A stretch of 8,395 bases of DNA. Source: Escherichia coli. Its GTDB lineage: Bacteria; Pseudomonadota; Gammaproteobacteria; Enterobacterales; Enterobacteriaceae. Below, piece by piece: positions 4,416 to 4,712 of the stretch. The notes under the pieces were generated by a model that was given only the letters and a program-made list of their open reading frames with translations, had not been told where the DNA came from and ran no database searches. Position numbers and translations under genes: made by a program. The stretch lies in the NCBI RefSeq assembly GCF_003334815.1, contig NZ_QOWO01000065.1. One strand, given 5' to 3'. Each line of letters opens with the position of its first letter. The first letter of the stretch is position 1.

Positions 4416-4479
4416 TTTTTTCTATCCTACAGCCAGTTTTAACTACCTTTATCATCAAATGAAAAAACTTATCACTTCA

Positions 4480-4507
4480 GATAATCGTTTTCTGATGATA
4501 ATAATTT
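4480..4507. promoter_or_regulatory. Weak Fur-box-like AT-rich motif in the tssB upstream region
   Basis: GATAATCGTTTTCTGATGATAATAATTT contains GATAAT-type hexamers reminiscent of the Fur consensus GATAATGATAATCATTATC, about 65-95 bp upstream of the tssB start. The match is partial and this is only a hypothesis. Confidence 0.15.
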
Positions 4508-4712
4508 CCCAATGCAGTATAACCAGTCACTACTGCAATGATGAATATGTATGCTCATATAAAAATAAAAGCCATAGCTACCGCACGGATATTTTTATAT
4601 ATAAAAACACCCCACAATAATTCTGTTTTTTGCAATTCCATTGCTTTAAAGCAGACACCACCGACTCAAGGGCATAGACAGTGAAACTATCACCAGCATC
4701 ACAGGGATAAGT

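Follow-up and report, generated by a model that had tools for sequence, protein, structure and literature searches.

The window analyzed here, 8,395 nucleotides of Escherichia coli contig NZ_QOWO01000065.1 (assembly GCF_003334815.1), carries an orphan tssB, a type VI secretion system (T6SS) gene, whose upstream region (4416–4712) includes GATAAT-type hexamers reminiscent of boxes for the iron regulator Fur. We favor, with moderate confidence, a reading in which the first part of this region is a truncated 5′ leader under no meaningful Fur control. In this scenario, the leader of an aaiA-type tssB would have been excised from a plasmid-borne aai/sci2-like (T6SS-3) cluster as part of a 1,036-bp fragment that now lies among unrelated DNA, and the native promoter has probably been lost. 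The hexamers make up the arms of a nested, AT-rich quasi-palindrome that has been conserved, and this palindrome is the most likely reason for the motif. One arm carries a Fur-type dyad that is degenerate here.

A fragment of a plasmid-borne T6SS cluster

On the minus strand, the window holds, from low to high coordinates, a TpsA-type gene, a tpsB-like gene, a tssC-derived open reading frame (ORF), and tssB; the order of transcription is the reverse, with tssB first. Homologous complete clusters are arranged as tssB-tssC-aaiC(hcp)-tssE-like-tssF-tssG-vgrG, which places the source cluster in the aai/sci2 type (T6SS-3), and a chromosomal relative in enteroaggregative E. coli (EAEC) 55989 carries the annotation aaiC/Hcp2. 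This gene order and annotation identify the window gene as an aaiA homologue from a cluster of this type, although only tssB and the 5′ part of tssC are retained, i.e., a remnant rather than a functional member of the family. In an ungapped comparison with the intact cluster of Salmonella Newport plasmid pSNE1-2010K-2159 (pSNE1), 1023 of the 1028 positions between 3640 and 4667 were identical (99.5%), and identity broke down left of ~3631 and right of 4666, delimiting the fragment at 3631–4666. The right junction was seen independently in two alignments, and homology to plasmid pNMBU-W12E19_01 (pNMBU) stops at the same place. Beyond the junction, from 4668 on, the match is to a Plesiomonas shigelloides plasmid instead (88%). 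The closest record is E. coli plasmid pJNE25-005_2. At the other end, tssC is cut after approximately codon 104, at ~3631, and unrelated DNA of 25–30% GC then leads to tpsB (3327–3630); the tssC reading frame continues through this unrelated sequence to 3586.

A conserved palindrome in the tssB leader

The hexamers reported by the first-pass annotation upstream of tssB are present as described, and the identity of tssB itself was confirmed by TIGR03358. Positions 4480–4507 read GATAATCGTTTTCTGATGATAATAATTT, with perfect GATAAT at 4480–4485 and 4497–4502 and the 5/6 hexamers GATGAT (4494–4499) and AATAAT (4500–4505). The two perfect copies are spaced 17 bp apart and hence do not form an in-phase array; a tandem model was also unsupported when scored directly, the best three-hexamer arrangement matching 13/18 positions (P = 0.32). 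Instead of tandem repeats, the hexamers supply the arms of two inverted repeats, I3 and I10, nested one inside the other; together these form a quasi-palindrome 34–86 bp upstream of the GTG start.

All eleven loci of the plasmid type that were compared have this palindrome: ten plasmids plus the chromosome of M18, in which it is degraded. When the tssB-sense strand was folded as RNA, the window leader reached −16.8 kcal/mol (z = −2.2), and the sister leaders of pNMBU (−22.0, z = −4.2), pSTEC299 (−16.1, z = −2.7), and pST866 (−23.7, z = −3.8) also folded; in the EAEC pAA plasmid of C700-09, where the arms are nearly perfect over ~31 bp, the value was −34.3 kcal/mol (z = −9.3). Across the plasmid haplotypes, the consensus structure kept 21 pairs, 3 of which were changed on both sides. 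One such paired change is found in pST866, where ATTATC has become ATTAGC, affecting an important Fur position, with a matching A-to-C change in the partner arm that turns a U-A pair into a G-C pair. This favors the stem, rather than the Fur half-site, as the feature that has been maintained. The pAA plasmid of C700-09 (L023, ~630–700) also shows several simultaneous changes relative to its neighbors, all of which improve pairing, in what looks like quasi-palindrome correction by template switching.

The palindrome may act as a leader stem-loop or a weak attenuator, or may persist merely by hairpin-templated mutation. In sister plasmids, the core takes the form of an A-run, a 7–8-bp stem, a 6-nt loop, and a T-run, and in pNMBU (L001) this core, AAAAAACGCTTATC-TGAAGT-GATAAGCTTTTT, was flagged as terminator-like on both strands, resembling a bidirectional intrinsic terminator or leader attenuator. 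Unlike such elements, the stem is AU-rich (3 G-C pairs) and is located ~40 nt before a start codon instead of after a gene. The window copy departs further from this form, as its inner stem pairs over just 5 bp (TTATC/GATAA) and is followed by GTTTTTTC, and it does not qualify as an intrinsic terminator or attenuator. Two other identities for the leader were discarded. A mobile miniature palindromic element is not consistent with its occurrence once per genome and only beside tssB among 101 E. coli records, and a small ORF over the Fur-like site, for which the minus-strand frames look hydrophobic, does not agree with the 7-nt and 1-nt indels between haplotypes or with the stops, which are not conserved.

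Fur-like matches in the window

To score the region, a symmetrised, consensus-seeded 19-mer matrix was derived from 16 Fur-regulated E. coli K-12 promoter regions. It converged on GATAATGATAATCATTATC, with in-sample scores of 10.4–22.3 bits and leave-one-out scores of 7.1–21.3 bits, and recovered known boxes such as those of tonB, sodA, and fepB-entC. The resemblance to Fur boxes noted in the first-pass annotation is real but weak: the best 19-mer of the region (4491–4509) scored 11.2 bits and matched 13/19 positions of the converged consensus. A match of 13/19 lies at the level of accepted sites (~11–13/19 or more), and the score falls below 13 and above 3 of the 16 true promoters in the leave-one-out comparison. 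The same score was reached by 9.7% of 3000 dinucleotide shuffles of 4416–4712 and is thus not clearly above chance. The best matrix site of the whole window lies elsewhere, inside the tpsA coding sequence (792–810, 12.3 bits), and while K-12 has 0.15 matches of at least 11.2 bits per kb, the AT-rich T6SS loci have 0.2–0.6. When the Fur box is described instead as a 7-1-7 inverted repeat, TGATAATnATTATCA, the window contains two 11/14 matches against 1.07 expected, at 4496–4510 and, mirrored on the other arm of the palindrome, at 4460–4474; this motif does not set the site apart either.

How far such scores can be pressed is illustrated by the validated fur1 box of the EAEC sci1 cluster, TATAATGATCAAAATTAAA (PMC3145626), which scored only 8.4 bits on the same matrix. 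A poor score, put forward earlier as grounds for rejecting iron control, therefore cannot refute Fur binding, just as a marginal score such as the one obtained here, inside the range of true sites, cannot establish it.

A stronger orthologous site in sister plasmids

At the orthologous position, most sister plasmids carry a better dyad, TGATAATAATTTTCA, which scored 15–17 bits and matched 13/14 positions of the 7-1-7 motif as measured in pNMBU (Table 1). The 17-bit version was the top match in its own 12.8-kb locus (shuffle P = 0.0024, compared with 0.01 for the version of 14.8 bits). Among the canonical Fur operators of E. coli are those of sodA (GATAATCATTTTCAATATC), fhuF, and fepD-entS, and the sister site GATAATAATTTTCAATTGC is identical to the matrix-recovered sodA box at 16/19 positions. 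Matches of this strength are rare in K-12, where 86.7 kb outside the 16 promoter regions yielded a single match of at least 14.8 bits, at 18.4 bits just upstream of mntH. This match, GAGAATGATTATCAAATTC (L018, 3757–3775), lies inside the recently annotated small ORF ypeD, upstream of mntH and not in the intergenic region taken as promoter, and is probably the real mntH Fur box.

Table 1. Fur-like site at the orthologous position upstream of tssB
Locus	Sequence	Matrix score
pNMBU-W12E19_01, pJKHS016_1, pAA of C700-09	GATAATAATTTTCAATTGC	17.0 bits, plus 12.4 bits 6 bp away
pSTEC299_1, pRHB14-C16_2, pLAO6	GATAATAATTTTCAAATGC	14.8 bits
pST866	GCTAATAATTTTCAAATGC	12.6 bits
M18 chromosome	GAGAATAGATTTCAAATGC	8.2 bits
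p2-S1-CAM-01-A (1-nt deletion)	GATAATATTTTCAATTGCA	7.3 bits
Window and pSNE1	GATAATAATTTCCCAATGC	8.0 bits; overlapping site 6 bp away, 11.2 bits

Relative to the majority haplotype, the window differs by two substitutions (TTTTCA to TTTCCC), which destroy one half-site. Since the same haplotype is found in the intact pSNE1 cluster, this change does not represent decay after truncation. From the distribution of haplotypes, the Fur-type dyad is probably a real property of the majority haplotype, which is likely the ancestral one, and in most sister plasmids the dyad may be, or may have been, a Fur operator. In the window haplotype, by comparison, the two substitutions would have ruined one half-site and left an 11-bit site that appears no better than chance in DNA of 34% GC. 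The window copy also departs from a canonical Fur operator in being embedded in a larger palindrome centered 23 bp away.

A local conservation peak was observed at 4486–4500, and 7 of the 15 core columns of the site vary. The dyad is broken in four of the eight haplotypes aligned, in one case through the substitution for which the pairing arm compensates. Beyond the plasmid clusters, the tssB upstream regions of 14 further species (TssB identity 60–68%) showed no conserved Fur box, with best matches of 4.8 to 14.0 bits at scattered positions. Regulatory information on plasmid-borne T6SSs of this kind was not found in a 2026 survey (PMC13098142).

These comparisons also bear on whether anything specific is present at all. 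Chance GATAAT-like words and short inverted repeats in AT-rich (32–34% GC), horizontally acquired DNA, which H-NS would bind non-specifically, might suffice to explain the region, and such an explanation would be in line with the base composition (GC 0.33 over 4351–4650), the shuffle results for the 19-mer and the hexamer array (P = 0.10 and 0.32), and the matrix matches of similar strength that the AT-rich half of the window contains at other positions. Likewise, no Rfam family was matched at the leader, and a whole-window Rfam E-value search gave just a chance CrcZ match elsewhere. We nevertheless consider this explanation unlikely, as the palindrome is conserved, shows compensatory changes, and reaches fold z-scores as low as −9.3, conservation peaks locally at 4486–4500, and the sister-plasmid dyad is improbable by chance.

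Promoter and read-through

The upstream region had been taken to be a retained tssB promoter region, which now seems doubtful. Of the T6SS sequence upstream of tssB, only 251 bp of leader survive, and the strongest candidate for a cluster promoter lies outside them: in pSNE1, a sigma-70 match of 11/12 (TTTACA-18-TATAAT; L019, 5456–5427, minus strand) is located 427–456 bp upstream of tssB; the block around it is conserved in the sister plasmids, whose alignment extends at least 250 bp past the window junction. Within the retained leader, a standard promoter scan found no promoter on the tssB strand, and a relaxed scan yielded 8/12 candidates only. We infer that the remnant has probably lost its native promoter. 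Downstream, no minus-strand terminator was found by a terminator scan between tssB and tpsB, and read-through from tssB into tpsBA is possible.

Comparison with characterized T6SS promoters

That some enterobacterial T6SS clusters are controlled by Fur, as the first-pass annotation noted, is correct: in the EAEC sci1 (T6SS-1) promoter, Fur boxes matching the consensus at 13/19 and 11/19 positions are experimentally bound, and the cluster is Fur-repressed (PMC3145626). The window resembles sci1 in its weak consensus match (13/19 here), in being derived from a tssB-first T6SS operon in E. coli, and in a −10-like hexamer that overlaps the site. Unlike the window, sci1 has recognizable −10 and −35 elements, where the retained leader offers only the 8/12 candidates, and its boxes overlap Dam GATC sites. 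No GATC occurs in 4416–4712, and a Fur/Dam switch as in sci1 was accordingly rejected. In addition, the window represents another T6SS family (aai/sci2 type) and a remnant cluster.

The closest tested relative is EAEC sci2/aaiA, for which a fragment from −421 to +46 of aaiA was the negative control, independent of Fur, in both Fur titration and gel shifts (PMC3145626). Alignments show, however, that the EAEC aai leader lacks the entire ~54-bp segment holding the palindrome and the Fur-like site. The aai loci of EAEC 042 and 55989 share with the window a homologous tssB, a homologous Shine-Dalgarno-proximal leader, a long leader, and the block CCGTGCGGTAGCTATGG. This block (AAAATATCCGTGCGGTAGCTATGG at 4572–4595; ~5150–5175 in locus L003) is the sole upstream segment that the plasmid clusters have in common with the 5′ UTR of the chromosomal aai locus of EAEC. 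It was rejected as a conserved ORF, the internal ATG opening 6, 8, 19, or 34 codons depending on the haplotype.

In EAEC 042, the aaiA promoter is AggR-dependent, with direct activation through a WWWWWWWTATC site 21–23 bp upstream of the −10 element and an AggR site lying 237 bp before the start codon (PMC6392122). As tssB is the aaiA homologue, the TATC arms in the window could be sites for an AraC-type activator of the AggR/Rns family, with AAATTATTATC (4507–4497, minus strand) placed 21–23 bp upstream of a weak −10. The sequence fits the motif perfectly and is on the tssB strand, the GATAAG found at spacing 23 has the required A at position 2, and one sister cluster resides on an EAEC pAA plasmid. 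Yet the motif is highly degenerate (7 window matches against 2.2 expected), the hexamers available at spacings 21, 22, and 23 (GTGATA, TGATAA, and GATAAG) are poor −10 elements (GATAAG 4/6) with no TGn extension, and neither the M18 nor the pST866 haplotype retains the motif. Homology does not support the site either: the segment is missing from EAEC aai, and the window junction at ~4667 is where the true AggR site of aaiA falls in the alignment. Finally, no aggR was found in the window, and the host plasmids are mostly ordinary IncF. Activation of this kind thus appears highly improbable. A second perfect match at 4598–4588 was set aside, with no usable −10 and no conservation in EAEC.

A possible weak Fur operator as a rival reading

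Returning to the favored reading of a truncated leader with a degenerate dyad, several observations weigh against it. The palindrome structure is lost in M18 (−11.9 kcal/mol, z = −0.4), the compensatory pattern could result from hairpin-templated mutation (template switching) without selection, and the window hairpin is AU-rich and weak and was not flagged by the terminator scan. Other observations speak for Fur. The score of 11.2 bits is inside the range of true sites and leaves room for Fur binding at 4491–4509, and a summed-cluster measure is nominally significant (P = 0.03–0.05). The sister-plasmid dyad is unlikely to have arisen by chance, the site shifted by 6 bp is nearly unchanged (11.2 bits in the window vs 12.4 in sister plasmids), and pairwise identity is higher in the site region (0.90) than in the whole leader (0.81). 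Weak −10-like hexamers, TATTAT (4503–4498) and TATCAT (4500–4495), overlap the Fur-like site, as in Fur repression of sci1.

These points would fit a functional, if weak, Fur operator, in which Fe2+-Fur bound at 4491–4509 and 4497–4515 occludes a weak promoter (−10 at 4503–4495), so that tssB is iron-repressed like sci1 and, with no downstream terminator, the tssC remnant and tpsBA follow. The match equals the sci1 fur1 box (PMC3145626) in consensus positions and exceeds it in matrix score, and the two sites stand 6 bp apart, a spacing typical of Fur clusters (PMC2189734). Overall, we still regard this possibility as rather unlikely, because the best score is reached by a tenth of shuffled sequences and equaled or bettered in coding DNA of the window, one half-site is destroyed, the dyad is disrupted in half of the aligned haplotypes, no promoter candidate scores above 8/12, Fur does not control the EAEC homologue, and the wider TssB subfamily, as sampled in 14 species, shows no conserved box. 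Of the proposed iron control of the orphan tssB, the weak Fur-like match stands and has a better orthologous counterpart, while the match itself is at chance level here and the hexamers are accounted for by the palindrome.

Features and genomic neighborhood

Coordinates of the features are collected in Table 2. The most conserved stretch of the leader (4426–4445, pairwise identity 0.93–0.95) is the one that includes the Shine-Dalgarno sequence.

Table 2. Features of the window discussed in the text
Feature	Position	Strand	Basis or remark
Short TpsA-type gene	297–1538	minus	TPS domain
tpsB-like gene	1593–3326	minus	577 aa
118-codon ORF	3586–3942	minus	First ~104 codons are the start of tssC
tssC 5′ remnant, ~first 104 codons	3631–3942	minus	TIGR03355 profile positions 3–87 of 473 only; identity to pSNE1 tssC lost left of ~3631
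Intact tssB, aaiA homologue	3939–4415	minus	158 aa, GTG start; TIGR03358 equivalog, 163 bits vs cutoff 97
Retained tssB upstream leader	4416–4666	minus	251 bp, all surviving T6SS upstream region; pSNE1 comparison, junction alignments
Shine-Dalgarno AGGA	4425–4428	minus	9 nt before GTG start; read from sequence
Nested quasi-palindrome / leader stem-loop	4449–4501	minus	Inverted repeats, RNA fold, consensus structure
Outer arms	4449–4457 with 4493–4501		TTATCATCA with TGATGATAA; inverted repeat
Mirror-image weak 7-1-7 match	4460–4474		TGAAAAAACTTATCA, other palindrome arm; 11/14
Inner arms	4469–4473 with 4480–4484		TTATC with GATAA; loop 4474–4479
Best Fur-like 19-mer	4491–4509		TCTGATGATAATAATTTCC; 11.2 bits, 13/19 to GATAATGATAATCATTATC
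Overlapping Fur-like 19-mer, shifted 6 bp	4497–4515		GATAATAATTTCCCAATGC; 8.0 bits; degenerate copy of the sister 15–17-bit site
Conserved GC-containing block	4572–4595	minus	Sense strand AAAATATCCGTGCGGTAGCTATGG; alignments A2 and A3
Unrelated DNA past recombination junction	4667–4712		Inside the flagged interval, not T6SS upstream region; two alignments and pSNE1 comparison

To the right of tssB, the window carries an 88-codon ORF with a signal peptide, an IS91 transposase, and a yacAB toxin–antitoxin pair of IncF plasmids. The 88-codon ORF (4933–5199, minus strand, within 4668–5300) encodes an 88-aa protein with a signal-peptide-like N-terminus, found as WP_032342288.1 in pJNE25-005_2, and had no NCBIfam match. 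To the left, the 577-aa tpsB-like protein had no NCBIfam match at E ≤ 0.001; a near-identical copy is labeled POTRA domain-containing protein in RefSeq, and the window protein is probably a divergent TpsB. The tpsA-like gene has just 413 codons, and an IS3 element follows it in pJNE25-005_2. Typical TpsA exoproteins are far longer, and the two-partner secretion module may thus be truncated as well.

Implications for plasmid-borne T6SSs

For the window itself, the significance is small. A 1-kb T6SS remnant made of tssB and 104 codons of tssC cannot build a sheath, so that, short of transcriptional read-through into tpsBA, its regulation would have no evident phenotypic effect. Its value is mostly comparative, as a leader palindrome bearing a good Fur-type dyad is common to the intact plasmid-borne aai-type clusters and missing in EAEC aai. 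A broader proposal, which we put forward tentatively and hold to be on balance doubtful, is that, in the aai-type clusters of IncF and related plasmids in E. coli and Salmonella, tssB is preceded at ~80 bp by a true Fur operator, TGATAATAATTTTCA, and that this operator sits within the conserved leader palindrome, which has no counterpart in the chromosomal EAEC aai cluster under AggR control. Mobile T6SSs of this family would thereby have exchanged a virulence regulator for iron control, possibly together with an attenuator, and the window would represent a decayed copy. If the dyad is functional, the T6SSs of these conjugative plasmids would be iron-regulated instead of AggR-regulated, a modest extension of the known regulation of T6SSs by Fur.

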